A stretch of DNA of 63,994 bases, counting the filler, from Streblomastix strix (lineage: Eukaryota), in assembly GCA_008636045.1 (NCBI GenBank). It is 3 parts of 3 records of this genome, joined end to end, with 100 filler letters (N's around TTAATTAATTAA, not from the genome) between each part and the next. Parts side by side here need not be neighbours in the genome. Positions count along the whole stretch, not along the records: positions 43,239 to 63,994 come from SNRW01000415.1; 2 more parts are not named here. One strand, written 5' to 3'. Below, one piece after another: positions 1 to 58,469 of this stretch. Numbering within the stretch: the first letter of the stretch is position 1; every line of letters begins with the position of its first letter. A model generated the notes under the pieces. That model was not told the DNA's origin, searched no databases, and saw only the letters and a list, made by a program, of their open reading frames with translations. The position numbers and the translations under genes were made by a program.

Positions 1-3000
1 ATTATCTTAATTGTTTTCAATTTGATTGTTAGATTCTAATTATTAATTATTTTATCCTTATTAAGATGGTTATAATTGAGATTGTAATTAATTGGGTGTT
101 TATAATAATTGTGATTATGAATTCATTATAGGAAGAAGTATTTTTTCATTTTAGAATGCAAAACTTCCTTATGATCGAAGAATTGATTTAGCTTTTCCTA
201 AAATTGGTTTTTCTTTAATTTGAATTCTATTTTCATTATCTTATTGTGTTTATTTTACGTCAATTTATGAATTGCTTTCAATATGATTTAATGAAGAATT
301 TTGCATTTATTTATTCTCATCTAAATTATTTTATTATTTTATTTAATTTTATTATTTGTATTCATCATTCAAACGGGGAAGAATTATTTATTATTGTTAT
401 ATCTGTATTATATTTTAATCATTATTATCATTCAAATTAGATTTATCAATTCCATTCAAATCATTTGATTTTATTCTTTATAATTAAACTTTCCCAATTT
501 TAACTTGTGAGTAACTTTTTTCTGGAGAAATTTGATTATATTATTAATTTTATTGTATTCTGTTTTCATCTTCATTATTTGATATTCTTTATTTTGCATT
601 TGAAAAGTTAGCATCTGAAAAAGAATGTCTGTTTGAATTATTGAAAAAATTATTATTATTTAATTCTTTATTATTTCTTCTCTAATTCACATAATAATCA
701 TCTTCCTACTCAAATAAATTATTTTATTATTTCTCTATTTATTAATTTGGTTCTTAATTTTATTCTTAATTTTAATTTATTGCAAAATCAATAAATTCAT
801 CATAAATTAATTTAATCTTTGATTATCTTAATTTTGATAAGTGTTTCTAAGCTTGTCTTTATTTAGGTTACAATTAGGGTTCAAAGAACTGATTTTATTA
901 TTCTTACTAATTTTATATACTATTTTATGAATCATATTAATTTGCTGATCTTTTTCTATCATTTAATCGAATACCGGAACTGCTTTATGATCGATATTAT
1001 TATTTATGTTATTATTCAAATTGCTTCTGTGATTTTTGTTTTTGTTATAAATAGTTCAGTGTTTTGTGGGGAGAAAATTATAATAAATTAAATTTTGGAG
1101 GATATAAAATAGCTGTAGATTAATACATTCTTTGCTCTTTTAAGTAATTATCTTATTATTTATGTTTATCTTTATTAATTTAATTTATTTCTTCATTATG
1201 CAATTATTAATTTGATTTCTAATTTTTTTTCTTTTAAGTTTATAAAATAAGTGGTTTTAATTTTCTTGATTCTTTTTATTATTTTATTTATTATTCGCTT
1301 TATTATTATTTTATTATTTCAGATTATTTTTCTTTTAATGTTTCTTTTTCTTTATTATTTTCTTATTCATTATCTTATTTAGATATTCTTTTTCTTTCTT
1401 TTTTTGATTCAACTTTCTTTTCCAACATTTAGTCTTTATTTATTTCTTATTAATCAACTGGTTTTTTATTTGAAATGATTTATTTATTTTCATTATTCAT
1501 TTTGGATTAATATTTATCAAATTATTGATATTATTATTTCAAATCATTTATCTTTAAATCTTTTGATGATTCTACTAAACTATCACAATATCTTTCTGTT
1601 TCTTTATCTTTTTCATTATGAATTTAATTTTATTGTTCAATAATGTATGTTTATTCATTGCTTGTCTTCTATATATCTATATTTTCATTTATATTTTATG
1701 TTTCACTCTTATATTATTAATTAGTGTTTGTGTTAGCACTTGTTTCATTTAATATTTATTTATTTTATTCATCATATTATGCTATTTATTCATTATTTTC
1801 TATTAGTTATTAATTATTTTCTTCAAATGAGATTTTATTCTCATTACAATTATTATTAATAATATTTGGTTATATACTTTTAATTTAATCTGATTTTGAT
1901 TGATTTTTATTTTAATCTTCAATTTTCAATTCAGTTTATATTTCATCTTTAATTTATTCATTTATATCCTTATATTTAATTTAACTTTCTTCTTCAATTA
2001 TATCTTATTCTTATTCAATTATTACTAATTATTATTCTATATTATTTTATGTATTTTCTTTATTTATTATTACATTTTTTGTATCCAATTATTATTAGTT
2101 TTCAAATTATTTATTAGTTTCAAGATTATTTGTTTATTAATTTTCTTTTGTGTATAAAATTGAAAGAAGAATTTTTCCAACAGTTTATTCATTATTCTCC
2201 AATTAATCTTATTATTATTATTATTATCTTGAATTAATAAATGAATATAAATTTGTTTGCTTCTTATTTAAGAATGAAATAAACTGAAAGGAAATTAAAG
2301 AAATAAAAGAAATAAAATATTAATCAATGAGAAAATTAATTGATTTTAAATAATAAATATATAATTTCATATGAATTTATTCAAAAACTAGATATTATTA
2401 TTCAATTTATATTCATACTGGTATACTAAGGGTTCCTTTTAATTAATTTGATCCTTCCTAATCAATATTCCAAAGTTCTATTTAAATTTCTCTTTCTTCA
2501 GTTTCATCTGGATCAAATAAAAGTATAAACTTTTATTCAAATGAAACTTTGTTGTCATTAAAATATATTTCATCTTTGTTCATTTATTAATTTAATTATA
2601 TTTCAGTATTATAAATATTTTCATTATTAATTTTCTAATATTGATCCAATTATTATGTTTATTCTTATTAATTTTATAATTTCATAATAATATATGCATT
2701 TGAATATGAATCAATATTTTCATTTTCATTCACATTTACAAGTTCAAACCCAAATATTATTAATTCAATTTATCCTTTTTCGTATCTCGGTTTGGCATAA
2801 ATCACTTTTTCTTAACAAATAAAGTATCTTGAATTCTCTCGATCAATTTAACTCTATTTTTCATAGTAAGTTAATTATTTCGTTTATGCTGCTGTTGTAT
2901 CATCTTTATTATTTATTTATTATTTGTATTGTTATTATACTTATTATTCTTATTGTTAATGAACTGGTAATAAACCATAATATCCTCCTTATTCTAAATA

Positions 3001-5817
3001 ATTGAATATATTTTGTTGTTGTTTAGGATATTATGAGTTAATTATCTTTTTCTTTTTCTTTCCATTCAAACTTTGAGAAGTGTATTAATTATATTCATTT
3101 AATTAACTTATACTTTCCATGTTATTACTATTGTAATTATTATCTTTCAATAATTGCTATTAATTTAAACTATGATTTACTAATTCCTTTTCTTTCTTAC
3201 TATCATTTTCATCATCATTATTAATTTATTTGTTTTCCTTTTCAACGGTTTATTATTTCTTTCTTTAATGAACTTATTTTCGTGTTATTTTTCTGTCTTT
3301 TGTTTTAATTATCTCATCTAATTATTCTAATTCGTCTTATATCTCATTTATATAATCTTAGTTAAGCAAAAATTCAGTTTCATATTTACCTGTTTAATTT
3401 ATTTATTCAAATTCTTACAAATATTCGTTCAGTTAATCTAACTCATTATCATACTCGGATTCTTCTTGAATTACTTATAGTTTCAGTTATTATTATGATT
3501 GAAAATATTACTTTTGTAATTTTTCAATTGAGGATTATGATTATTTTTTAACCTTTTCTTTCTCTAAGTTTTATTGTTATTATTCAACATTTTCAGATTT
3601 ATTTAACTTTTATTATTCAAATTATATGATTTTTTCTTTTTCAATTGGAGATTATATTTAATTTTCATTCTTTTCTTTTTCTTAATTTTTTTGTTATTCT
3701 TTAATCCTATTTCTGATATTTTCAAGTTTATATTTTAATCTCACTTTAAGTCCAATTATAACACTGAAATATAAAAAATATCACATATATAAAAAAAAAG
3801 GTTGAACTATAAAAAAAATAATTATTAAATTAATAGATTAAAATAAATAATTAATATTAAATATTGAAACAATATATAATACTTTAAAGGAAGCATTGGT
3901 GTCAAAGCCGTATCTAATTCTCCTTTTGTAATGTTGACTTCATCCAACTATCATAATATATGAATTTAATTTAAATAATAAATCAAATATAAATTATTAT
4001 TAAAAATAAATTAATATTTATACTTCTTCAGGAAGAGGAAGAGTTCCATTGCATGTAACCCAAGGATGTTACTGTAATGCAAATGTAATTATATATACAA
4101 GAATAAATAAAATTAATATTTATTTAAAATAAGTAGTATTTAATTAATATAATTCTTCAATTTAATATAAGCATACTTTTAATTATTCAATTGTGAATCT
4201 TTTTTAAGGATCTTTCTCCAAAGTTCCCTTTAATATTATATTTGGTTATTAATATAACAGAATGAATATTATTAATAATAATCAAAATATATTAATTTAT
4301 TTTTATTTATTTTTAATTAATATAATATTATATATTAAATGAGCATTAAAATACTTCTAATAAATTCCTTAAATCAGATGAAATCCTACTTGTTATTTCT
4401 TTGTTTTCTTCTTTATCAAAAGGAATCGGATTGTTTATTACTGATTTATACAAATTATATTTATTTTCTTCATCGTATGGAAGATGACTAATTAATATTA
4501 AAAAGAATAAAAAGTATTTATATAAACTGTGCTATTTGAATATAAATTATAATACCCATAGATAAACATGAAAAGTGTCACTCCAATTGCATATATATCT
4601 GCAAGTGATGGTAAATATCCATTTTTTACGGTAATAGCTATAGTTATAATCAAAAAAAATATAAGAAAAATATAAAATGTATTAATAAATAAAAAAATAT
4701 AAATTAATAATTTTTTATATATTTAAATAATCAAACGATTTACAGCTTCAGGAGGAATAAATGGAGGAGTTCCTTTGACTGTTGTGATCAAAGTTGTCAT
4801 ATCTTCATAATATGACGAAACTCCAAAGTCACTGAACGAAATTAATTAAATATATTAACATAAAAAAAAAAATAATAAATACAAATTATTAATACCAGAT
4901 TTTAATAGTATCATCTTCTTTTCGTAAAATATTATCTGGTTTTATGTCGTGATGAACAATATGGTTCTTATGCACTTGAATAAAATAAATAAAACAGATA
5001 AATAATAATAAATATTTTATTATTATTTAAATGACTTTAATTATTGAAAATAAAATGTAATATAAAATACTGTATGAAATTCCAGCAATAATATCTCTAA
5101 TATCAGCACGTGCTTTATCTTCACTAAATGGTTCTTAATCTTCAATAAAGCATGGTCCACCTTTCACAAATTCAAGAACTAAATAATAATAATTAATAAT
5201 AATAGAAAAATAAATAAATATAATAAAAATAAATAAGTTTTATAAACAAACTCATATAAAGTTTCTTTTTTGAAGTATCATCAATGACTTCGCGTAATTT
5301 GACAATATTTGGATGCCTCATCTTCTTCATTATGGCAACTTCCCTGTTTATCGCTAAAGGGTACAAATTAGGATTAAATTATTAATTAAATTTAAATAAA
5401 TTAAACAATAAATTAGAACTATTATTATTAATAATAATAAAACGTATTATTTTCATACTTTCTTCTTATGTTAAAGCTACTTATTTTCGAGGGCCTCTTT
5501 AAGGAGCAATAACCCGTTTCTTTTATTCTTTCTTTATGACCTTCATCGCATAAAGTTTACTAGGATTACTTACTATATGAACAAGCTTAACTTTACCAAA
5601 TGCGCCTTTACCAATCATTTGATGAATAACATATTGATTTATTGTTCGAGTTCCTGACTCTGAATCCCTTTGTTTAAGCAATTAGTCAGTAAAAACTACG
5701 CTCTTGAATAAACTCGAATGTTTCACTGGAAATTGGCAACATGATTATACTTAAATTAGAGATGTGGAAAAATAATTTCAAACCCATTAACTATCTACGT
5801 AAAGTTGCGTCTGACAT
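1..5817 (-). CDS. CaMKK/GRIK-like Ser/Thr kinase with long low-complexity C-terminus and possible C2-like segment; multi-exon, 3' end outside window
   Basis: With TAR=Gln: MSDATLRRQLM, 34-nt GT-AG intron, then ...TINQYVIHQMIGKGAFGKVKL, HHDIKPDNIL (~4930-4960), DFGVS, GTPPFIPPE. Segment FEQKFILLFDPDETEEREIQIELWNID...KGTLSIP (~2420-2545) resembles a C2 strand pattern. Confidence 0.85.
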
Positions 5818-8624: not shown

Positions 8625-11600
8625 ATGAATTAATCTAACGTTCAGAAATAAGAAATTGACTCAAATAATTAGATTACAATGGATAATAGAAATTTGGATT
8701 AATTATAGAATATTGTTGATAATACATCTGGTATATCTATTTAATTAATTATATGCAGCAAATAAATTAGATAATTATTAAACTATTTAATATATTATAA
8801 TTCATATTTATTAAATCTCATTATTATTATGATTAATTTGTAAGTATTATAAATAAAAACTTTTAATATATTTCTTTTTTTTTCACAATTACAAATATAT
8901 ATATTTTTTTTTCTTTTATTCAACAACAGAGTTCAACATTATTGATCAATAAATATCTGCATTTACTCCAACTTAATTTGATTCAAATGGAAATTTGTAA
9001 GGTAATTAATTTAATAGAAAAATATCAAATTACTGAATAGTAACAATAATATTTTTTAGTTATATATTTATTTATATTTAATATTATTTATATTTCTTTT
9101 TAAAATGCATTATTTTCATTAATTTTCATTTTAATTTATTAGACAAACCTTTCAGTAATTCTTCAGATCAAGTAAAAAAACAATCATTTTAAATTCAGTA
9201 AGGTTTTTAATTTAATATTTTATTTATTGATATAATTATAATATTTCATAATGCAATATATTTAAGTATTTAATAATTTACTTAATTATAATAAAATAAT
9301 TAAAATTTCATTCAATATTTTTAATTTTTCAATTAATTTTAAACATAATAGAATTCAATATTATTTAGACTTTGATACCTGTAGAAGAAGAATCAAACAT
9401 TAGAATAAATAATTAACAAAATGGTAATTTAATTTTTATTAATATATTAGAAAGTTAATAAATAATTATTAATGAATATTTATATATTTAAATTATTTAA
9501 TATTTATATTATTATTTATATCTCGTTCTTTAAATATATATTATTTAGATTATTAATATTATTCATTATTTATTTATTTACTATTTCTATATATTAAAAA
9601 CCCTCTATAATATTTAATCTGATTCAGCTATAAGAAAAAATGTTGAATATTCTTAAGGTTAATTACTTCTATTTATTTTATTTAATTAATATATATTATT
9701 AATAAATAAATTTTAATACTATTTCAATATTCTTTGATTGTTTAATGAAATATTAAATAAATATATTTAATTATTATTTTAATTTTTATTTATTATTAAT
9801 TTTATTCTAATTTATATTTTAATTAATTATTTTTGTATAATTTTATAAATTTTAGAATCCAATATTATTTAGACTTTGATACCTTCAGAAGAAGAATCAA
9901 ACATCAAAATGAAAGAAATACACAAAGGTTTTAATTTTTATATAAACTTTTTTTAAATAATTGAATATTAAAATTAATTAATAATTATTACTTTTTGATT
10001 TTATTCATTTTATTTATTCCATATCAATTATATTTCTTATTCATTTAAATTTTAATTATTAGAATTGCATCAACAACCTTTAGTTACCATTGGAATTAAT
10101 GACACACTTGGCAATCCAGATTAATAGTAGAATTAATAATAATAATAATAATAATTAAGTGATTATATTTAGATTAAAGATTAATTGATTTAAAATTCGG
10201 AAATTTTAATAAATGAAAGATAATTGAATTAAACTAATATTTAAATTGATTAAAATTATGACATTATTGGAATATAAACTGATGGTTTGATAAATATTTG
10301 TTAGATTTTATTTATTAAATATTAATTTTTAAATTAATTATCTTTTAATAACTAAATATATATATTTATGTTTTTATATATTAAATAGAATCAATAAAAT
10401 AAAATGCCGTTAATAACAATCAATTATAATTAATAGAAATATCATAATAAAATAATAATGAGAAAGAAAAGATTATTAATAAATTAAATTCAAAAGCAAA
10501 ACCGTTTATTCCAAAAAAAAATTCAAACAAATCTGAAATTAATTAATAAATTTAATAAACATAACATTCAACATATGATTCTTAGAAGAAATAATCATTA
10601 TTACCAATAAACGACCAAACATAACAATAAAATTCATCATCATTTCAATCGTCATCTTCTTTTCCAATAATGCAATACCAAACAAAATTCAATTCATTAC
10701 CACAAACTCCTTTAATATAAAATTAACTTAACTTTAATCCTTCAATATTGAATTTAAATTTAAATCAATATTAATAATTCAATCCTTTTCCTTAATTATT
10801 TATTTAACCTGCACAAATCTAATAAAATAATATAATATCAAACTAATTTAATCTCAATATTTAATAATAGTATCCTATTTAATAAAATTCAATATTTTAA
10901 TAATAATAAATATAATAATAAATGCAACCTTACAATATTAATATGAATAATTAAAGTCTTTATTAGTAATAAAATCTGAATTAGAATCTATAAAATAAAA
11001 ATAATCATACATATCAAATTCCAACAATATTTGGTTCAAAGATGTCTGGAGGGATGTTTGGAATTTAAGGTCTGAATAATATATAAATATTTATATGAAA
11101 TAATTAATGAATATTTAATTTTAATAAAAAATTATTTAATTTTAATAATAAATATTAAATTGATTATATTATTATATTCACTATTTTTTTATTTTTAATT
11201 TAATATTTAGATGCACCAAAATATTAATTAGATTAATTGCATTAAATAATGAAAGATATTCATTCTATTATTGAATCAAATACAATAAATGATGAAGTGA
11301 AAGAAATAAAATTATAAGAAATATATTATGAATTGAAAAAGAAAGAAATAGATGAATTAAAAAAGATATTTAATATCGAAGCATTTAAATTAATTCAAAC
11401 TTATATTAATGATTGTATAACTGGAATAGAGAAAATATTATTAGATATGATCGAGTTAGTTGCTGAAAAAGGATAATAAGAAGATTATAATTAATTCTTC
11501 GATTCATTTCAATAATCTGGAATCATTAATAAGATTTAACAACTAATTAAAGATAAGATTAAGATTGAAAAAGAATAAAAGAAATATTCAGAAGAAACAG

Positions 11601-12769
11601 AATAATTATCAAGAATTAATATTCAATTAATGAAAGAAAGAGAATCTGATTAATCAATGATTGATATTTACACTAAAGTTATTGAAAAGAATTTAATAGA
11701 TTTATTAAATATAATCAATAAATTAAAATTAAATAATAATGAAGCGATTAATAATTAAATGAATAAAGAAGAAATAGAAAGTGAATTAAAATAATCAGCA
11801 AAATTAATTAGAGTAATTTCTTAAATTAGAGAGAAAAATCCGAAATATGATTGGATAGGAAGAATTCCAGAATTGATTATAAAGATTCTTAAATAAAAAG
11901 TATCTCCTATGATTCATCTAAATTGTCCTGAATACATAAATTGTAATAAACTCATCATCATTCAAGCATCTCCTGCTTTATAAGAATTAAAAGAAGCTAT
12001 ATTCTAAGCTCTTGTTGAAGTTTATAACAATAATTCTGAATTCGTGGGCATGTTAATTTAAGATAATAACTTCCTTCCTCATCTCGCACAATTCATAATT
12101 TCATATTCAACATAATTTCAACTTGAGTAGAAAACAAACATTAATTAATAATAGCATTAATAATAATCAGAATATTCTTCTTCTCCAACTTTTATTTCTT
12201 CTTCTCTTTAAATCCTTTATGATAAAATCAGGAATAATTATATATAAAATTCCAAATAAATAATATAAATTCCAAACTTTCTTCGTTCACTCACTATACT
12301 TATTAATTATAAGTGCAACATACACATCAACAATGAATAAGATTAATAATCATAACAAATTAGAAAATGGAGCAGATAATGTCTTAATTAGATTCAGTCA
12401 TATGGTGATGAATAAGATTAATCTGAACTAACTAATGTTGGATATGGAAGAGCGCTAATTATATATATTAGTACTGCAGGTGGGACAGAAGAGTAAAGAG
12501 ATTGGGAGATCTTTAATGGATTAAATAACATCTCCAGATTCATCTGTTAACTTCGTAATGGGAGAAATAATGATAATGATAATAATTAACCATCCTTCCC
12601 AACATAACCAGCTCTTTCTAAAAGATGCATCGAATAAATAGAAGAAGAAGGAGGAAATGAAGAAATTGAATCATAATTAATAAATAAATGGAATGAAAAA
12701 GATTATTATAATAATATCAAATATTAAGCGTATTAGGCCATAATAAAAATAACGAAAATATAAATTTGA
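8625..12769 (+). CDS. Hypothetical protein: small N-terminal exons, PAM2-like motif, Q/N-rich region, C-terminal helical domain of a lineage-expanded family (paralog of 55992-58469)
   Basis: ATG 8625; KLNSKAKPFIP at 10481-10513; last exon DAPKYQLDQLHQIMKDIHSIIES...GDEQDQSELTNVGYGRAL...IEEEGGNEEIESQL; TGA 12767-12769. Confidence 0.75.
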
Positions 12770-21527: not shown

Positions 21528-21627
21528 NNNNNNNNNNNNNNNNNNNNNNNNNNNNNNNNNNNNNNNNNNNNTTAATTAATTAANNNNNNNNNNNNNNNNN
21601 NNNNNNNNNNNNNNNNNNNNNNNNNNN
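21528..21627. other. Artificial contig-join linker N44-TTAATTAATTAA-N44
   Basis: Exactly 100 nt; identical to 43139-43238. Confidence 0.97.
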
Positions 21628-43138: not shown

Positions 43139-43238
43139 NNNNNNNNNNNNNNNNNNNNNNNNNNNNNNNNNNNNNNNNNNNNTTAATTAATTAANNNNNN
43201 NNNNNNNNNNNNNNNNNNNNNNNNNNNNNNNNNNNNNN
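43139..43238. other. Artificial contig-join linker N44-TTAATTAATTAA-N44
   Basis: Same 100-nt structure as 21528-21627. Confidence 0.97.
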
Positions 43239-43239
43239 T

Positions 43240-43554
43240 TATATGAAGGTAGATGATAAGGAAAAAATAAAATTAAAAGGTGTTAATCAAAATACTAATA
43301 AAATTACTAAAGACTAAATAGTTGATAATATAACCAATGGAACGATTACAAAATGCACAAATATGCGGTTAGGTTAAAAGAATTACCAAATGAGCAAATT
43401 AGCTACAGAAAAAAATGGAATTACGGGAATACACACAAAAATGGTGGTACTAAGTGATTAATCATGTTGTCCTTACATTTATGGTTTGAAAGCAAGTGAT
43501 TATACGGTCTCTGAGCATTAGCGTGAAACCATTTTTGATAAAAAAGTTTAATGA
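43240..43554 (+). CDS. C-terminal fragment of a protein-primed family B DNA polymerase
   Basis: YMKVDDKEKIKLKGVNQ...KNGITGIHTKMVVLSDQSCCPYIYGL; KxKGV motif and a terminal PY/F pattern typical of pPolB ends; viral context. Confidence 0.65.
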
Positions 43555-43570
43555 GCCAAAAATAATAAAT

Positions 43571-44242
43571 TCAATTCTTGGATATGATTATTTTTATGAC
43601 CATGGAACCATCAGGTTATTTATCTATATCGCACAAAATGCCTTTATGTTAATTTTAATCAATTTCTGGCCCTTTTACCCATTGCAAATTCTCCAATCTA
43701 TCATCTAAATAATTTTTATTTATGTGTTCAACAATAGATAAATTTTAAGGATTAGGTAAAAAATGTGTTGCTATTATTTTATCCAAGAAATACACCTAAC
43801 CATCTAATTTAATTTTGTGAAAACCATCTACTATGTCAATTATTTTAATATCTTTACTGTCTATTATTTTTATATGATATGGATATATAGTTTCTATCGT
43901 ATAATTCGGATGGTCTCGTAAGATATCACACAAAATGCCTTTATGTTAATTTTAATCAATTTCTGACTCTTTTACCCATTGCAAATTCTCTAGTCTATCA
44001 TCTAAATTATTTTTATTTATGTGTTCAACAATAGATAAATTTTAAGGATTAGGTAAAAAATGCGTTGCTATTAATTTATCCAAGAAATACACCTAACCAT
44101 CTAATTAAATTTTGTGAAAACCATCTTCTATACCAATTCTTTGAATATCTTTACTGTCTATTTTTTTTATATGATATGGATATTATGTTTCTATCGTATA
44201 ATTCGTATGGTCTCGTAAGATATGCGGATTATCAAATCCCAT
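43571..44242 (-). CDS. Protein made of two tandem HNH-endonuclease-like domains (223 aa)
   Basis: Twice IATHFLPNPQNLSIVEHINKN(N/Y)LDDRLENLQWV, matching the HNH_3/NUMOD-type pattern AxxFIPNPxNLPxVDHINxxxxDNRxxNLxW; 297-bp in-frame duplication. Confidence 0.8.
43627..44223. repeat. 297-bp tandem duplication (99 codons)
   Basis: Copies begin at 43627 and 43924 and are similar throughout. Confidence 0.95.
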
Positions 44243-44270
44243 TTTATAAGCTAATAAAAAAATAAAAAAT

Positions 44271-44639
44271 TCATACCGATTATTTTTATGGCTAATTTAA
44301 TAGTTTAAGATATAAAATATATCTCCAATGAGTTGCCAGTTCCATATCTTTTTATTAAATTGCATCATTCAAAAATTGTTCGATTTGTTATACGGTTAGC
44401 TAAGACCAATTTATTTACGGTTCATTCTTGCTCATTTTTCTTTTATAAAAAAATTATATAACATAAACCGTTATATTTAGTGGTACCAGCACTATATCAA
44501 AATATCCCCATAACTTCTTAATTAAATTAACGGTATCGGTCAGCTGCTCAGGAATAGATACAGACAAAACAGATATAATAAAATTAACACCATAAAATAT
44601 ATAATTCATTAGACTCATAAACAAATTCAATAAGTTCAT
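44271..44639 (-). CDS. Viral hypothetical protein with hydrophobic N-terminus (or two small ORFs, the second starting at 44435)
   Basis: MNLLNLFMSLMNYIFYGVNFIISVL...VIQFFYKRKMSKNEPQINWSQLTVQQIEQFL...QSV-TGA. Confidence 0.55.
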
Positions 44640-44657: not shown

Positions 44658-45674
44658 ATGACACTGCAAGAGATATAGGGCATAACATTTTCAAACTAGG
44701 ATTTACTAAACGAATATAAAACACGACCACTAACCAAAAACTCCTTATTCCTCGTTAATGGAAACCATTATATTGTTGGAGCTGTTGGTTCAGGTAAAAC
44801 AACATTAATGTCCAAGCTAATAGTTATATACTAAAAAGTAATCAATCCATACATATTATACTTTTCAAATTTTGGTGCTGACGAGACAATGGCATTAAAT
44901 CTTAATAGTAAAAACATATCACTAACCAATATAACATATGGGGAAGCAATGTTGTTTTTACCAGAATTTGATGAAATAAAATATTCAACAAAAGAAGTAT
45001 ATACTTGGTATAAATTGCATGAGTAAGGTTTTAAATATACCAGTGATTTTATAAAAAGAGTCGAAGAAAAAATAATATAATAAAATGAAGCTAAAACTAA
45101 TGAAAAGTCAGAAGTTTATTTAAAACGAATAGCTGATTTGTTCAAATAATATGTTATAGAAACCATAAATAAATATAGCTAGCCATTTAAAATATTACAG
45201 TTTGATATTCCAGCACTTATATAAAATATTAGCTATGAAAAGAAAATGAAAGTAATAGATGATAAACAAACAGCTGATATAAAAATAATGAAAATACCAG
45301 TACTTTTTAAGGCATAATTGTTAAATACACTAATGCTTTTTGATGATATTGGAAGTAATGCCGATATCCAACGTTTTAATTCTTCACTTGCTAAATCAAT
45401 TACTCATTTGGTTAGTGATTCAAGGCATTCGAAAAATACGATATTTTTTATAGCTTAACGTCCAAGTTATTTGTTTAAGACTGCAAGGATATTATCCCAT
45501 GTAATAGCTATAGGGGTTAATCTTGGAGAGAGTGATTTCAAACAAGTATATGAAGAAAACACGATATAAAACCTTGATTTTGAAGAGTTTTTACTGCTAT
45601 ATTCCACATTATAAAAATATGAATTTATTATTTTAAATAAGCTTTTCAGCAAGTATGAAATATTAAGAAATTGA
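44658..45674 (+). CDS. A32-like (FtsK/HerA) genome-packaging ATPase, 338 aa
   Basis: Walker A IVGAVGSGKTT, Walker B LMLFDD, SRHSKNTIFFIAQ (RH...Q motif, Gln = TAA at 45456), KTAR; intronless. Confidence 0.92.
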
Positions 45675-46597: not shown

Positions 46598-48649
46598 TCA
46601 TGGAGGTACTGACACCAAAGTAATAGGTTTAGCACGCTAATATACTTTTGCCCCATCGCTATAAAATCCCCCTTCTGTGCCTATACTATTTACACCCCAT
46701 AAAATAGGATTCCCTGCTGAATAATTAACTGACCCAGCCGCAGGCGGAGTCTATGACATTGTTGCTCCATTTGTTGCACCAGTGCCAGCTATAACTGACC
46801 CATTAAATGTTAAAGTATTTCCATCAGCGGATATTTATAAACCTTTACCAGATGTATTTTAGCCAGCTGTACGCACTATATTTAGCGTTCCGTCACCCTT
46901 TTTATATATTGACCATTATTTATCTATGTATCCAGAAGTAGTATTTGGATCACAACCTAATGATATTAGGCATAAATTATTTGTTGTATTAGCAATTCGT
47001 AAACTTTCACTATAATTTCCAGTTTAAGGATTAATTTAAAATGGAGATTAAAACATATTCGCGAATAATTAAAACCTAGTTGTGTAATCAGTAGGTAATG
47101 CATCAACCATATCACTATTTAATACATTTGATATCAAATCTGGAAATGTATTTTATCTCGATAGTTGTATATCAACACTATTACTCCACGCGTTCATATT
47201 ACACCATAACTCTCCATAGCCTGTAGTTCCTGACCCATAATATAAAATATAAGCTCTTTTTAAAAATGTGTTAGATTCAAAATGATAAGAGTATTGACCA
47301 ATTCCATTAGTGATATAATTTTAATTGAATTGTATTAATCCAAACGCATACCTGCAATTAATGTAAAATTCAACGGAAACATTATTTGATTAATTATATG
47401 GAATAAATTAACATAATTTAATATATTTTTCTGTAGTTGATACATAATAATTATTTTTAGCTAAAGCTACTTTTTTAGTTGTCCCATCAGCTAGTAGTAT
47501 TTCATTATTTGTGCCATTTGTCTTCTTAATTGTATCAAATGTTTTTATATCAGTAATGGTTTAATCAGATGCTATATCTACTACTCCGTTTATTGCATCA
47601 CCATTAGCGCAAAGTATTTCCGTAGCCAATCCTCCAGTCTTAATAAATTTGGTCGCGGTAATGTTTCCATCATATGTTAATTACTATGGATGGACATGGT
47701 CATTTCTACTATAAAAATCACTCATACCATTAGCCGCAGCAGTAGCATTTACTAACGGAACATTTGCAGTTGTTGGATCAACATTTAATGGGTGCTAATG
47801 TGTGGCACTGGCATATATATTAGCAGTGCCTGCTGTTCCTGTTCCCGTATCTTTTAGTGGTACGTCATTACTTAGATTTACATGATGCGTATGGTCAGAC
47901 CTGACATAAGTGGTAGCAACTCCTGCCTCACCATTTGCAGTATCTTTTGCAGGTAAAACAGTTGAAACTTACAAAGGATGTTAATGGTCTCCTCTTGCAT
48001 ATTCATTACTAGTTCCTGCATTACCATTTACAATAGAGTTTGATGGTATTGCATCACTGGCAGGGGTTACCTAATCAGGGACCACATCTCCACTCTTATA
48101 CCAATCAGCCGCAGGTGGGGATCCTGTCATATCATACATCCATACTGTTCCACTTTCTGTACTAAATGCAAAATCACCACTTGCTGAATTAGGCAAATTT
48201 TATATGACACTATTCAACAAATAATATCCACGGAAATGTATTTATCTCGCTAGTTCTTACTAAATAGTTAACACATCATTTTTTAATCCATCAATATCTT
48301 ACTCTACCCCTCCAATTGATGACTATAACTAGTTTACTTCATTAATTAACTAGTTAATTTATGCAACAAAATCAAAGTTTATTACCTTTAAATTCTTTAT
48401 TGTAAGAAGCCCATTTGGTGCTATTTTGAGTGCATAATCAGCAGCATAACCATCAACTATTTAGTTATTAGCTGCATAAACTAGTGCATTGTCATTATCT
48501 ATAAACAGTTAGTATTCATCATTTTGCAACATGCCACCGCTAGAGCTTCCCCTTTTCTAATACTGTATATAATACGCTATATCATTAGTGATAAGCTGGC
48601 GAACTGTTCGGATTTGTTGCTGTGTTAATGGATTATTTTAGGTAATCAT
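46598..48649 (-). CDS. Tail-fibre-like virion protein (683 aa) with coiled coil and HxH repeats
   Basis: YARGDHQHP, YVRSDHTHH, YASATHQHP, YSRNDHVHP; GGLATEILCANG, QTITDIKTF, GTNNEILLADG. Confidence 0.8.
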
Positions 48650-48931: not shown

Positions 48932-50924
48932 ATGTCGTTCTCAGCATCTGACTACCTTTAAAGACTATCCAAAATGCAACACTCCGACTACATTAGTGGA
49001 TACATGCAACTTGGTGAGGTGTTAAAAACACTATCAATTCATGCCTAATCCTTCGCAATTTCTAAGCAATAATTTTTTGACTGACCAGTAAATTAGCTTA
49101 CATCATCAGGTGTTAGATATACACGTGCGCCGTTGGCTGCTAGAGGTACAGCAACTTGTTCAATGGTATAAACCTGCTAAGTAAATTGGACTATAACAAT
49201 CCCAGCAAATATATTAGCTGTATAACTAAATAGATGTGAAGATTCAGGAGGTGACGAAGACGAATTAAGAGCAAGGGTTAATTTTAATGCAAATAATGAC
49301 CTTGCAGAAGACCCCAAGATTATGACATAATTCTACAAAAAATATTATGGTAAAACTGGTGATGGTGAAGAAAAAAGTGAACATCTGAAGTTTTGGCTTG
49401 GTTTCTCCACTGCTTGCGAACCCTTTAATTAGTTTGCAATATTACGAGATGCTTAAAACTTATAGAATACAGCAATATATGCGAGAGAGTAAGCAGTTAT
49501 TTGTTCAAATTCATTAACAGATTTATGCACCAATAATTCCGTCAGTGTCTCACCACTCGAGTCCATCATTGCTGGCAAACGTCATTGTGGTATTTTTATG
49601 GATATTCCACTTAGTGATATAGATTTATAAGCTACAGTAGCAGATGGATAACCAAGAACACCATATTATTTTAGAATACCATATGATATAAAATTTAGCG
49701 GTGTATTAGATTTGAACTAATTAAATCCAATTTTTAACTCATTCCCAGTACTGACAAGAAACTATGCATCATTATACTTATAGCTATGGGTGTAGGATTT
49801 CCTTTAAGATTTAAAAAATTGTGTGGCTAAATAAATCAGATGTTATGTAAAATAATCATCTTGCATATGCAATGATTCCACCAGAGAAGCCAGACGTCGT
49901 TTATCTATTAAGTAAAGAAGAGGATGAGGACCCACAGGCATATTCATTGTATAATGTTAGGCTCGTTAATATGTAAAATGTTGCGAATAACGCAAAAGTA
50001 CCATAAAATTCCATTAGTCAAATATCAGATTCTAAATTCGAAGAGCAAGAAATATAAAATGTATGTTTTAATATAGAAAATGAAGAGGCAATTATTCAGA
50101 TGATATAAGCCTAAAGAATAATAAATTTCCCCACACAAATCATAAGGTCCTAATCTTCAAATTTTCCCTTCAGTGGTTTTTAGGCTGTTTCTGGTAGTAT
50201 GTAAAGTATAATGTCATTTGCTAATATAAAGGCACTATTCATGACATTTGCCATGCCACAATATCCTACTTGGTTTTTCCCTGTATTATTTTATAACTTT
50301 AATTTAGTTGTTGATTAAAAGAATTTAATACCATAACCATATAAAGCACTGACCCAAACAACTAATAGCTAAATGTTTGATTGTTTTGTTGATTAGGATG
50401 TTGTAAGTGCTCCATCAGACCTATACCATTCACTTACTTTTGAAAATGTAAATGTTGATGATAAAAACAATTTTTATGGATATGTTGACCCTGCAGGTGA
50501 TGTAGGAACTACTGCTAATATATTTTATAATACAACATTATACAATGGAAGCAAAGCCACAAAAACATTATACCCAAATAAGTTTATGCTGGCATGGAAA
50601 ATGGCAACTGATGACTCATTTATGAGAGGTTAAAACTCTTCAAAAATTGGTGCTAGGACAAATATTTAAGTGATTTTAAACGGAAATTTGACTAAAGGAA
50701 TTGTAGATACTACAAAATTATATCCATCATAGAATTAAAACGATTTTAAGCAATTTATTGGTATGCGTAGCTATCTGGATCCTCACCAGGTAGCACTGAC
50801 ACCTATCATGCACTATTTATGTGATGCATTTATTCGCATAACTTTTGATGTTAACCCAGACCCATAAGTATTAAGCATGGATGTTATTGGAGAAATAGGC
50901 GGTTCATCAATTAGAAGCGGATGA
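48932..50924 (+). pseudogene. Probable double-jelly-roll major capsid protein (about 660 aa) with one in-frame TGA and one +1 frameshift
   Basis: Long intronless beta-rich ORF near the ATPase and fibres; VLDLNQLNPIFNSFPVLTRNYASLYLQLW; TGA at 49082; extra A in the run near 49813-49818; span 1993 nt = 3n+1. MCP identity rests on size, context and composition. Confidence 0.65.
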
Positions 50925-53160: not shown

Positions 53161-53826
53161 ATGGAATTATCGCATGCTCTTAAGAATTTGATAGAAAATG
53201 GAACAAATATTGAATACTTTGATAAAGATTATGTGGTATAGATTAATAAATAAATAAAGGTATATGAAGACGGCAAAAAACAACTGCGAAAATTGACACA
53301 AACATAATAAAATAAGCTATTGCTATAAGCTCGTGGAGGGGGATAAATAAATAAAAAACCATCAAAATAAATAGTTTAAAAATAAGCTGTGGATGAAGAA
53401 GAAGATTTTATAAATTATGAATAATAGGAGGAAAGACACCGAGATATACAGGATGATATAAATGAAAGCGATGATGAAACAATTAGCCAAAGCGAAAGAC
53501 CCGAAAGGCCAATAAAACATTTCCGTGAGGCTAAACAACCACATAAAAAAGTTATAAAAGCATCAAAATAGCCATAAATCAATTATACAAATCAATAGCT
53601 TAATTTGGAAGAATTAATACGTTTAAGAACTGAAAATAATTTTATAAAGTAATAGCATTAAGACGCTATAAAATAAATAGAGAAATACAAGCAAAAAGTA
53701 AAACGTTATAAACAACCAAAATAAGACATTGAAAAATAGGAAGAATAACAAGATTTATAACAAGAGCCTATATAATAAAATTATTAGCCTGAATAAAAAT
53801 TTAGCGAATATGATTTATATAATTGA
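53161..53826 (+). CDS. Viral hypothetical acidic/coiled-coil protein (221 aa)
   Basis: MELSHALKNLIENGTNIEYFDKDYVVQ...; upstream TTTTAAAATATTAAAATG as at the MCP gene. Confidence 0.7.
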
Positions 53827-53854
53827 AAGAATTATTTTTTTACTAATTATAAAA

Positions 53855-54142
53855 ATGAATATTAATATTATCGATATAGACGAATAGGGTAAAATATGTG
53901 CTATTGGTAATATTCCATGGAATAATCTACATAAATTTTAGTTATCAAATAATTAACTACTTTTAACAATGAACCAAATAAATGATTACTAAGAAAAAAT
54001 AAAAACAATTAACGGCGATGAACTTTTTAATTATATTAGTGAAATGCGGGTGCTTAGTGAAAAGTAAAATAAATTACGTAATGAATATGTAAAACAAGAA
54101 AAATAACGCTATCGTTAAAAGCTAAAAGAAATGGATGATTGA
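53855..54142 (+). CDS. Viral hypothetical protein (95 aa)
   Basis: MNINIIDIDEQGKICAIGNIPWNNLHKF...KEMDD-TGA. Confidence 0.6.
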
Positions 54143-54428
54143 CTTTTTGGCACATTGGCGGCTCGACTGGCTTTTTTTATGACAATTTTTTACCCGGAAC
54201 ACTCGGAACACCTGGAACGGTCCACGGCTATGGCATTTTTTGTTAAATCTCCATGCTAAAATTATTATATAAATTATGTGTATCCATTATTTGTTGTTAT
54301 ATATTGTTATAAATTGATGTGGTGGCTTATTGGAGATATTTTTTTAAAAAGCATTTTTTAACCGTTATTTATTTATTTTAATTATTTTATATAAGGGGTT
54401 TATATTCATTATTTATTTTGCACATTAA

Positions 54429-54677
54429 AGTAGTATATGATGGTTATTTATGCAATAACTTCAAAAGGTATTAGAATTTATAAAAAACCACGCAAGTTCT
54501 TTTTTTTAAGTTGATGGTCTAACAAATGCAATAATATTTTCGAACAAAGGCGTTAGCCAGCTGTGAGAAAATTTTATAAATTTGAAGGCCAAAAATCTTA
54601 AAAAATGAAGGAGTGGAGATTTTTTATAAAACTGAACACTTTTGAAGTTGGGGCATAAATCACCATCATATACTACT
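54429..54677. repeat. 249-bp imperfect palindrome with AGTAGT...ACTACT ends
   Basis: Outer 39 nt of the two arms match at 35 positions; similarity continues inward to a GGC-GTTA-GCC centre at 54549-54558. Confidence 0.9.
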
Positions 54678-55991
54678 GACATAGCCAACTCATGTTGTTC
54701 ATATTTTATTCTTATATTGTTTTAATTATTTGTTATAATTTTACATTTACAAAATTTTATTTTTCATTCATTTTTAACTTAATTTATTTTTACAATTTTT
54801 TTTTCGTTGAAAATCATGTGTCCTAAGTTATGGAAACTTAAATATATTGTTTTAATAAATTATCTAATATATATAGATTTACTCACACAATTTTTTATTG
54901 ATGATCAATTTTTCATTGTAAACAAAACTACAAGGTATATAAATTCAAAAACTATAAAAATCGTTTACGATTTACGAAAAATCGAACTGGTTGTAGTTAT
55001 AATGTGGTAGTATCAATTAAATTTTCTAAAGATTGCATAATATAAGACAAAATTTTTGTTGTATTTCACAGAAATGACCTCAATTCTTTTGAGAGCCAAG
55101 AAATAAAGGAGACGAAATTTACTGTGATTGTGAGCATATCATAAAAAATTGCTCTAGTAATTCTACTTTAAAGAGTAATTTCCATATTTCAGACACAAAT
55201 TTAAATCTTGTACTACTTCCTATTCATTTGATCTGCACTCGAAAACTCCTAATTATTCCACACCGCTATCTTTTATTTAAATTATTTATTTTATTATGTA
55301 TTTTGATGTTTCTTCCAATATTTTGTACAAATATATTTATAATTTCCTACATTATTACTGTTTTAGTTGGACAAAAATATGCGAGATTTAAATGCTTCAT
55401 TTCTCATAATCGACATTATTTAGATCATTTCCAATTGTTCATAATTAAATAATAGTTTATTGTTCACAATTTATTAATATAAATTTTTTTGATCATATCT
55501 TTTCAAAGATGTTATGCTTCTGGGAATTCATTTCATTTTTCCTACATATTTTTTTTATCCTTTGATTTTTTTAATTATTTTGTTTTTTAATTCTTAATTT
55601 AGAACATCCGTCTTATGCATTTATCAATTATAAAACTATCATGTCCAAGTCAGCAACTGCCGTATACTTGTTTATAATTGCCAGAAATAGGTTACAACTG
55701 CTGCACGCTGGTTTGCAACAGTCACAGACTTGTACATACTGGATACTGATTGATGGCTGAAAAGCATTTATTATCTATTAATTTGTATATCAAATACTTA
55801 ATTTTATGACTTCTAAGCTTCGCTCCTCAATTTATTACTCAATTTTCATATTTCTTTCCAAATAATATTTGATATTATTTATCTATAATTTTAAAACTAT
55901 CAAAATATTACATTTCTTTTCATATTCAACTTATTTTTATTATTAATTTATTTATTTAATATCTTAATCCTCGCGTTTGCTCAGTTTATCA

Positions 55992-58469
55992 ATGTCAACC
56001 ACTGAATAGTAATTTGAAGTTATTTCTGATTATGCTGGAGTTAAAGGAGATACAAATTATATTGCTGTTATGAAAGGAGATGTGGTTCGATTGATAAAGA
56101 AGGATAAAGAATGATTCACAGTTAATAAGGATGAACGTATTGGAAAAGTACCTAAAAGAATATTAATTTAAAAGTAGAACTAAATTTCTTAGATTCTGAT
56201 GAATTTTCCAATATAAACAACATAAATTGTTCCAAAAGCAAAATAATAAATGAAGACAAATAACAACAGTAAATCGAAATCCCCAATAAAAGTATAATAA
56301 ACTTCTAATTAAAAATAATCTAATAATCTTAATTCATTAACTTATTCTCTCATAACATCAAATAAATAAAAGCCAAAAATCTTTCCTCCACATCCAAAAG
56401 CACAAATCAAACTTCAATCTGACAATTAAATATAAACAGTATACGAAATCAAGTCGCAGTCTGAATCTAATATTACAAAATAAGAGATAAAACAATAAGG
56501 TAATTAATTTAATATTTAATCTGTTTCTCCATTAGACAATTAATAATCATAAATCAAATCTGTCATTCAAATAGATAAATAATAATCATAAATAACTCCA
56601 CTTCACTCTAATGCACAAATCAAACTACAATCTGACAATTAAATATAAACAGTATACGAAATCAAATCGCAATCTGAATCTGATACTACAAAATTAGAGA
56701 TAAAACAATAAGGTAATCATTTTAATATTTAATGATGTAATAATTATTATTCTAATAAATAAATAAATAAATGTTTATTATTATTTATATTTTCATTAAA
56801 ATTGTATTTTTTTGATATTTTACTATAATTAAATTACTAAATTAAATTCCTTTCATTCGTATTCAAATTTATATCTTTTATTTTCATCAAATATTTTGCA
56901 GCTTCAAAATATTAATTAGATCAATTGCATTAAATAATTAAAGATATTCAATCCATTATTGAATCAAAGACAATTAATGATGAAGAGAACGAAATGAAAA
57001 TTAAAGAAATATATACTAAATTGAAAAAGAATGATGAAGATGAATTAAAAAAGATATTTAATAATGATGCATTCTAATTAATTCTAATTAACATTAATGA
57101 TTGCATCTCTGGAATAGAGAAGATATTGTTAGATATAATAGAATTAGTTGCAGTAAATGGAGTATAGATGCATGATGATGATGGTTATTATGAAGATCCT
57201 ATCTTCGAAGATATTCAGACATCTGGACTCTTAACTAAGATTAAATAGATAATATAATATAAAACTGAGAAAGAAAAGGAATAAGAGAAATATTCAGTTG
57301 AAACGGAACAATTAATAAGGATTTGTATTCAGATAATGAAAGGAAGATAAATTGAATAATAAATGATAGATATTTCTGTTAAAATAATTGAAAAGAATTT
57401 AATTAATTTATTAAATATAATTAATAGCATAAAAGAAGATAATAATAAAGTTATTAGTGATGAATAAAACAATGAAGATACAGAAAGAGAAATAAAATAA
57501 TCAGAATAATTAATAAAAGTAATTTCATTGATTGGAGAGGAAAATCTGAGAAGTTAGATGAATAAAGTAAGAATTCCAGATCAGATCATGAAGATTGTGA
57601 AAGAAAGAATATGCCCACTTTTTCATTTAAATTGTCCATCTAATATCAATTGCTAATAATGCATCAAAATTCCACAATCTCCTGCTTTAATAGATTTGAA
57701 AACTGCTGTATTCTAAACTCTTTCTGATGTATCATTGAATAATTGGTTATTCACTAACATGTTAGTGAGTGACCATAACATCATCCCCCATCTTTCTCCA
57801 TTCATAATATCATTTGCATCCTAATTTCAACTTGATAAGAAAATAAACTCATAATAATATCATAATTAATTATAAGAATAATTCACTTCTCTTTCACTTA
57901 TATCATCTTCTCTAAATATCCTTAAAAGTCTAATTAATAATAATAATAAAAGTAAAGAAGTTACTAAGATATCTAACAATCTCTATTCACTTTCCATACT
58001 TACAATCTACAAGATCAATATTCACATCAATTAAGAATATGATCTATAAACATTATCTATCAGAAGCAGAAGTAGAAATTGTCTGTGGGTTATTCAAATG
58101 TATAGTGATGCATCTGCCCAATCTGAACTTGTGGACGTTGGATATGCTAGAGTGTTTACCGTTGCAATTAGTGCATCAGGTGGCCATGGTGAATAATAAG
58201 ATCAGGAGATCTTTAGAGGATTGCATTCAATCTTCTTCTTCCTCAATTATCTTCAAGGTGCTTATTCAATGCCACTTCAACCTCTTCTTGTACGAAGATC
58301 AGTTGAACAAATTGAAGAAGAAGGAGCAATTGAAGAAATTGATGCATAATTAATAAATGATGGACATTACAATTGTAATATCAAGGAATAAACAAACAAT
58401 GTCAAAAGAATGATTTTGAACTACTTTATTAATAAAAGTAATCGAAGACCATTTTAATTTAACCGTTGA
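55992..58469 (+). CDS. SH3-domain protein with internal repeat and the same C-terminal family domain as 8625-12769; in-frame TGA in the SH3 (possible pseudogene)
   Basis: FEVISDYAGVKGDTNYIAVMKGDVVRLIKKDKE*FTVNKDERIGKVP; intron 56713-56901; ASKYQLDQLHQIIKDIQSIIES... Confidence 0.75.

Follow-up and report, generated by a model that had tools for sequence, protein, structure and literature searches.

A 249-bp fold-back at positions 54429-54677 very probably forms the outer tip of an endogenous Polinton-like virus (PLV) of Streblomastix strix, an oxymonad protist of the termite gut, rather than a stand-alone MITE, because in the listed contigs homology between copies ends at 54677 and continues inward. 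Given a virus tip, a replication role of an end-regenerating kind is somewhat favoured, and the full reading, that the fold-back is the virus tip and acts as an end-regenerating stem in protein-primed replication, has about an even chance of being correct.

The window (the whole stretch of DNA that was analysed, 63,994 nucleotides with filler) contains two N-runs, at 21528-21627 and 43139-43238, which carry the all-frame stop motif TTAATTAATTAA and are by appearance contig linkers, with no contiguity across them. The fold-back lies in the segment from 43239 to 63994 (20,756 bp), which the provirus enters from the contig start at 43239. The GC content drops at 54677, from 0.29-0.30 before this position to 0.24 beyond, and TAA and TAG are read as Gln in the window. 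The features of the provirus and its boundary are as follows.

43240-43554, plus strand: C terminus of a DNA polymerase of family B (PF03175), 72-94% identical to named pPolB records; the contig start cuts off the remainder.
43571-44368, minus strand: ORF for an HNH endonuclease (PF13392, E 5e-10), in which 297 bp are tandemly duplicated.
44658-45674, plus strand: P-loop ATPase, from a Walker A motif (weak AAA matches only, E 0.02).
46598-48649, minus strand: 700-codon ORF from the ORF scan, putatively fibre-like by composition, with no family match.
48974-50924, plus strand: major capsid protein gene with a frameshift near 49816 (named relatives; Atlas features at 0.96 to Capsid_N/Capsid_NCLDV clusters).
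53855-54142, plus strand: last small viral ORF, 95 aa in code 6, multi-copy in contigs.
54132-54349, plus strand: subterminal region, present at high copy in the virus family; 54192-54218 holds three 9-bp direct repeats (contig depth; a diverged 690-nt contig).
54350-54428, plus strand: AT-rich linker of variable length from the subterminal region to the hairpin, shorter by about 49 bp or more in other copies (loose end matching at 28/30).
54429-54551, plus strand: inner arm of the terminal fold-back, beginning AGTAGT (folding, self-BLAST); it abuts virus subterminal DNA in other copies.
54552-54555, plus strand: GTTA loop of 4 nt, closed by GGC/GCC (folding).
54556-54677, plus strand: outer arm, ending ACTACT, with 54677 as the very probable virus-host junction (7 listed contigs depart at 54677 or 54682; depth drops to the single-copy level past 54677).
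54678-54683, plus strand: GACATA, the first six host bases, a predicted target-site copy (sequence at the exact end).

Several traits of Polintons and PLVs are present in the provirus. A pPolB is indicated by PF03175 above cut-off in four of the five related records tested, a double jelly-roll major capsid protein by named relatives and Atlas features, and a short terminal tandem repeat by (AGT)2 at the junction end. The capsid gene has relatives named 'Major capsid protein', and 250 protein clusters among 1109 candidates are related to it. The capsid fold model is poor (pLDDT 41.7), and its top rows are jelly-roll capsids, all with E > 0.001 or Z < 5. A public gene model spans the capsid frameshift near 49816 as though it were spliced. 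From its sequence, the P-loop ATPase is probably the packaging ATPase. At 43626-44219, the two units of the 297-bp tandem duplication are 94% identical and double the HNH domain of the viral ORF. No rve integrase or tyrosine recombinase was found among the 22 ORFs scanned, the part of the provirus on this contig starting at 43239; nor did that part yield a Rep/NS1-type protein. Capsid and polymerase queries gave no confirmed loci in any collection searched. The subterminal region 54132-54349 is probably the inner part of a terminal repeat. Within it, 54132-54239 is a GC-richer motif whose summed depth is very high, reaching 38,000 in contig set X1; this motif may serve the whole family as an origin or as an array for protein binding. 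Loose ends before 54173 carry other short GC-rich repeats. In the host flank, 54719-54803 and 54942-54980 are multi-copy (X1 depth ~1150 and ~870) with unrelated loose ends and represent a host repeat. The host gene adjoining the provirus, which is SH3-like, contains a direct repeat at 56334-56733 (213-bp spacing, 82%), and host paralogues at 11077-12685 and 56753-58358, on separate contigs, are 70% identical members of a helical protein family of ~550 codons.

An earlier note on this DNA had described 54429-54677 as an end-to-end fold-back with a GGC-GTTA-GCC turn at its midpoint. Both of its 39-mers sit at the coordinates it gave, DNA folding produces one stem of 99 bp, and the turn closes this stem at the pair 54549-54558. 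The single stem comprises 96 Watson-Crick and 3 G-T pairs at -57.2 kcal/mol (-52.2 for the opposite strand), compared with -19.7 +/- 3.45 kcal/mol for shuffled sequences (z -10.9), none of 200 shuffles equalling the native fold. When every tile of the window was scored half against half, the fold-back tile ranked first of 6305 (117, or 124 for the exact element; 94 at the next locus). The window holds one copy of the 249-mer. No Rfam match at E 0.1 was obtained in 53800-55800, and a 24-mer had no matches in metagenome and genome contigs; 76 loci in viral contigs that matched a 16-mer were rejected as chance matches, all ending within ~30 bases.

The two arms are 71% identical by self-BLAST, and their similarity is concentrated at the base of the stem. 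The outermost 16 bp are perfect (16/16), and over the outer 38 columns the arms match at 34, versus 57 of the inner 90 columns (63%; Fisher p 0.003), where the differences comprise 18 transversions, 8 transitions and 11 gap columns. The inner part by itself nevertheless exceeded all of 2000 shuffles.

Evidence on the boundaries of the fold-back comes from assembled contigs of public runs that were aligned to the window, sets X1-X4 (four of five runs listed) in a first comparison and two of these, X1 and X2, in a comparison of loose ends, for which 12 of 54 loose-end rows and 16 of 263 pieces are listed. The window itself may derive from X1, X4 is from the X1 sample, and X2 is the sole clearly separate study; X3 (organism A) contigs cover parts of 53700-54347 and leave out the hairpin, although a lack of cover carries no weight as evidence. 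Past 54677, in the loose-end rows listed, five X1 contigs with a median loose length of 255 agree with one another at 0.57, and five unrelated host flanks used as a benchmark agree at 0.56 (range 0.50-0.62). Two X2 contigs also depart on this side, with loose ends of 179 and 190 nt, one of them leaving at 54682, five bases beyond the junction. Long right flanks thus occur in seven contigs, whereas none of the listed rows has a long left flank that resembles host DNA. Instead, eight contigs (four listed rows) depart before 54427-54428 with short loose ends (medians 11-26 nt) that agree at 0.98-1. The 30-nt X2 loose end matches window positions 54350-54379 at 28/30, the runner-up on either strand of the window being 21/30, which indicates that those copies link the hairpin to viral subterminal DNA through a linker shorter by ~49 bp. 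An 11-nt X1 loose end represents the same junction as the 30-nt X2 row, being of low complexity and weak alone, and loose ends at 54427 represent a still shorter linker, also weak alone; a 16-mer among these short left rows matches elsewhere at 14/16. A 690-nt contig of ~82% identity matches 54229-54319 and 54525-54634 colinearly and in the same orientation. Among the junctions listed, then, the inner side is viral DNA or compatible with it and the outer side is unrelated sequence, rather than the two host flanks of a MITE.

These unequal flanks, on contigs from two studies, support the view of the earlier note that 54677 is the true end of the large element. As to what the note had said would refute its reading, the fold-back is multi-copy rather than single-copy, listed copies adjoin viral DNA on the inner side, and in the listed contigs homology does not run on past 54677, where they diverge. 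In X1, the summed depth of the hairpin is ~2300-3100 at its thinnest, versus 31.5 and 45.7 for two exact single-copy contigs of the right flank; this depth is no copy number, and it points to tens of copies. The window-type linker is also multi-copy, with a depth of 844-1011 in X1 and 22-32 in X2, positions 54400-54429 included. A dip in depth on the inner side, at 54340-54390, was considered as a MITE boundary and rejected, being a stretch skipped in the contig alignment.

Pieces of the main family differ from the window at 3 of 214 letters (X4) and 5 of 163 (X2), so that copies are ~97-99% identical. Because this divergence is far below the 29% that separates the two arms, the mismatches between the arms are inherited across the main family. 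When 34 listed variants were placed on the fold of the window, 16 broke a pair, 6 changed a pair to G-T and 12 were unpaired; no compensatory pairs were visible among these variants, which are unphased and for which registers may shift. Among the joints listed, neither contig comparison contained a strand-changing joint, and no listed outer loose end resembled the viral linker above the AT-rich background, so all listed hairpin junctions share a single orientation. Likewise, no flip/flop isomers were found among the listed joints and loose ends, contigs being a form of data that drops rare forms.

The polymerase of the virus family bears on how such an end might be replicated. The pPolB of the window is a C-terminal fragment, and the regions discussed here are known from sister copies that are 72-78% identical to it. 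In the sister proteins that reach further towards the N-terminus, an alpha/beta region is conserved, and behind it, where vOTU would lie, come Cys and His motifs, an arrangement that matches the TP-vOTU-Exo-palm order given for pPolB in the available text of a published study (PMC11161782) and that makes a terminal protein (TP) domain likely in the family. The structural model of the N-terminal region is weak (mean pLDDT 48.9), with pol eta residues 391-491 as the best relevant row (Z 3.6, rmsd 3.4, 74 aligned) and an adintovirus protein as the best Foldseek row (E 8e-5, at a low TM of 0.11); a PDB sequence search by the pPolB profile gave no significant match. An endonuclease VII-like insert (phrog_1035) was matched by all four of the long family pPolBs tested, at E 6.5e-13 to 8.3e-11. 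These four records (P0123, P0143, P0151 and P0156) extend to an oxymonad family an HNH insert described in nematode and oomycete pPolB2 (PMC10748475). A further record, P0163, named elongation factor 1-alpha, contains a C-terminal piece of pPolB (82% to the fragment in the window), so that its gene model was likely fused over a provirus.

The fixed orientation of the junctions, the retained TP-like region and the conserved base of the stem fit protein priming with local rebuilding of the end, and short terminal tandem repeats have been cited in favour of protein priming (PMC4196379, in its available text). In the mechanism proposed here, the fold-back would have originated when the last ~125 bp of the virus were copied by snap-back. 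With the terminal protein, the polymerase would initiate at the AGTAGT end, and the hairpin would be copied without inversion. Once a single strand has been displaced or excised, its 3' end could pair with the inner arm, 249 nt away, and this local pairing would rebuild a double-stranded AGTAGT end with no need for the far end of a 15-20 kb genome. The need to rebuild the end may keep the base of the stem near-perfect while the interior drifts, and mismatches in the arms may lower cruciform instability in the host chromosome.

Other readings of the fold-back differ in what they make of the inner arm. It may be a functionless relic of a single ancestral snap-back duplication, in which case the origin and the integrase site would lie in the outer arm alone, with the inner arm as a passenger; the drift of the interior to 63%, with its transversions, transitions and gap columns, and the lack of compensatory pairs among the listed variants agree with this, and accidental annealing is the alternative offered for similar palindromes in the available text of a preprint (bioRxiv 10.64898/2026.07.28.741278). 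Neutral decay is expected to be even, yet the matches are concentrated at the termini, and at least one copy that is ~18% diverged retains the loop-spanning part at the virus end, so a relic is judged unlikely, although the stem base could alternatively be homogenised by occasional fold-back repair. Less probable still is the satellite that the earlier note had entertained, a MITE-like unit with two inward-facing AGTAGT ends that is moved alone by viral enzymes and lies beside the virus by targeting or chance. The fold-back is short, non-coding and multi-copy with terminal inverted repeats, carries the two ends that a minimal element needs and belongs to a homogeneous main family; one X4 contig ends exactly at the branch point 54429; and the window-type linker has only about a third of the hairpin depth, leaving about two-thirds off that linker, which may conceal stand-alone copies or flop isomers. 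However, no junction among those listed supports such a unit, although a minority of copies may be of this kind. Three linker variants account for the branch point at 54429, the four left loose-end rows listed are short and mutually consistent with the informative one viral, and the lack of a 6-bp TSD that the earlier note reported was borne out by a scan for 3-10 bp at the exact ends, which found none.

In a further alternative, rated distinctly improbable, replication would be hairpin-primed in the style of parvoviruses and poxviruses, with self-priming by the 3' end and nicking or resolution of the hairpin or cruciform by the endonuclease VII-like domain of pPolB. The fold sets the 3' end of the top strand (54677) on 54429, directed into the virus, and the endonuclease VII match recurs in every long family pPolB tested; T4 endonuclease VII cleaves cruciforms. 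Flip/flop is the usual outcome of terminal resolution, and neither a strand-changing joint nor a linker-like outer loose end is among those listed. The family pPolBs also retain TP-like and vOTU-like regions. The same model was put forward for Halocafeteria elements (bioRxiv 10.64898/2026.07.28.741278, available text). The HNH inserts that occur also in nematode and oomycete pPolB2 (PMC10748475) are interpreted, in the text available, as homing-endonuclease or intein invasions (PMC11161782). A hybrid virus, in which each foot of the hairpin has an AGTAGT origin for protein priming, the hairpin can also prime itself and the endonuclease VII-like domain of pPolB is the resolvase, is slightly more doubtful again; if real, such a virus would stand, still living, midway between ends of the Polinton type and those of the parvovirus or poxvirus type.

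The terminal hairpins of parvoviruses and poxviruses are long, AT-rich and imperfect, with an inward-pointing 3' end, and are made by terminal resolution, mostly with flip/flop. The S. strix hairpin is likewise a long, AT-rich, imperfect fold-back with its 3' end facing inward, but no flop joint is listed for it and no Rep/NS1-type protein turned up in the part of the virus on this contig. MITEs and fold-back non-autonomous elements are short, non-coding, multi-copy and self-complementary; unlike them, the S. strix fold-back is without a TSD, and where they would have host DNA on the inner side too, it adjoins conserved viral DNA. The available texts describe Polintons as ending in simple TIRs, the two ends of the genome pairing with each other to give a racket, whereas the S. 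strix tip is a hairpin. To our knowledge, the racket model is the sole standing proposal for how a Polinton-like provirus exits and restarts replication. Against this background, a long imperfect hairpin on a multi-copy pPolB family provides experimental work with a defined substrate and with a candidate nuclease, and the hairpin tip sets a boundary motif for delimiting S. strix proviruses in a fragmented assembly.

According to the available texts, Polintons/Mavericks and the endogenous viruses of Metamonada, those of S. strix included, share with the provirus analysed here pPolB, ATPase and capsid genes, use of the host genetic code, a short terminal tandem repeat and hundreds of related copies, 250 capsid clusters in the present case (PMC10120064, PMC10748475, PMC4196379). 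Endogenous viruses of S. strix that use the host code have already been published (PMC10120064); the word 'hairpin' does not occur in the main texts of PMC10120064 and PMC10748475, an earlier mention in supplements being possible. Terminal palindromes are reported, in the available text of the preprint, for virophages of Halocafeteria seosinensis (subtypes 1, 2, 5 and 6) and for PLV subtype 4, and hairpin priming or accidental annealing is proposed for them (bioRxiv 10.64898/2026.07.28.741278). As far as that text describes them, the palindromes in Halocafeteria, like the fold-back in S. strix, are at the extreme end of an endogenous Polinton-related protist virus and adjoin the host junction. 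The palindrome of subtype 5 is 52 nt, compared with 249 nt (about five times as long) and 71% self-complementarity in S. strix. The Halocafeteria palindromes occur preferentially with non-pPolB replication genes, whereas the S. strix provirus carries a pPolB fragment, and both arms of the S. strix hairpin begin with an AGT tandem, unlike the Halocafeteria palindromes. The Halocafeteria screen allowed at most 4 mismatches and a gap of at most 10 (bioRxiv 10.64898/2026.07.28.741278), and would likely miss the S. strix fold-back, which suggests that screens for near-perfect palindromes miss imperfect ends of this kind. Terminal hairpin tips have so far been reported mainly in related viruses without pPolB; compared with the known terminal palindromes, the S. 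strix tip is longer, imperfect and linked to pPolB.
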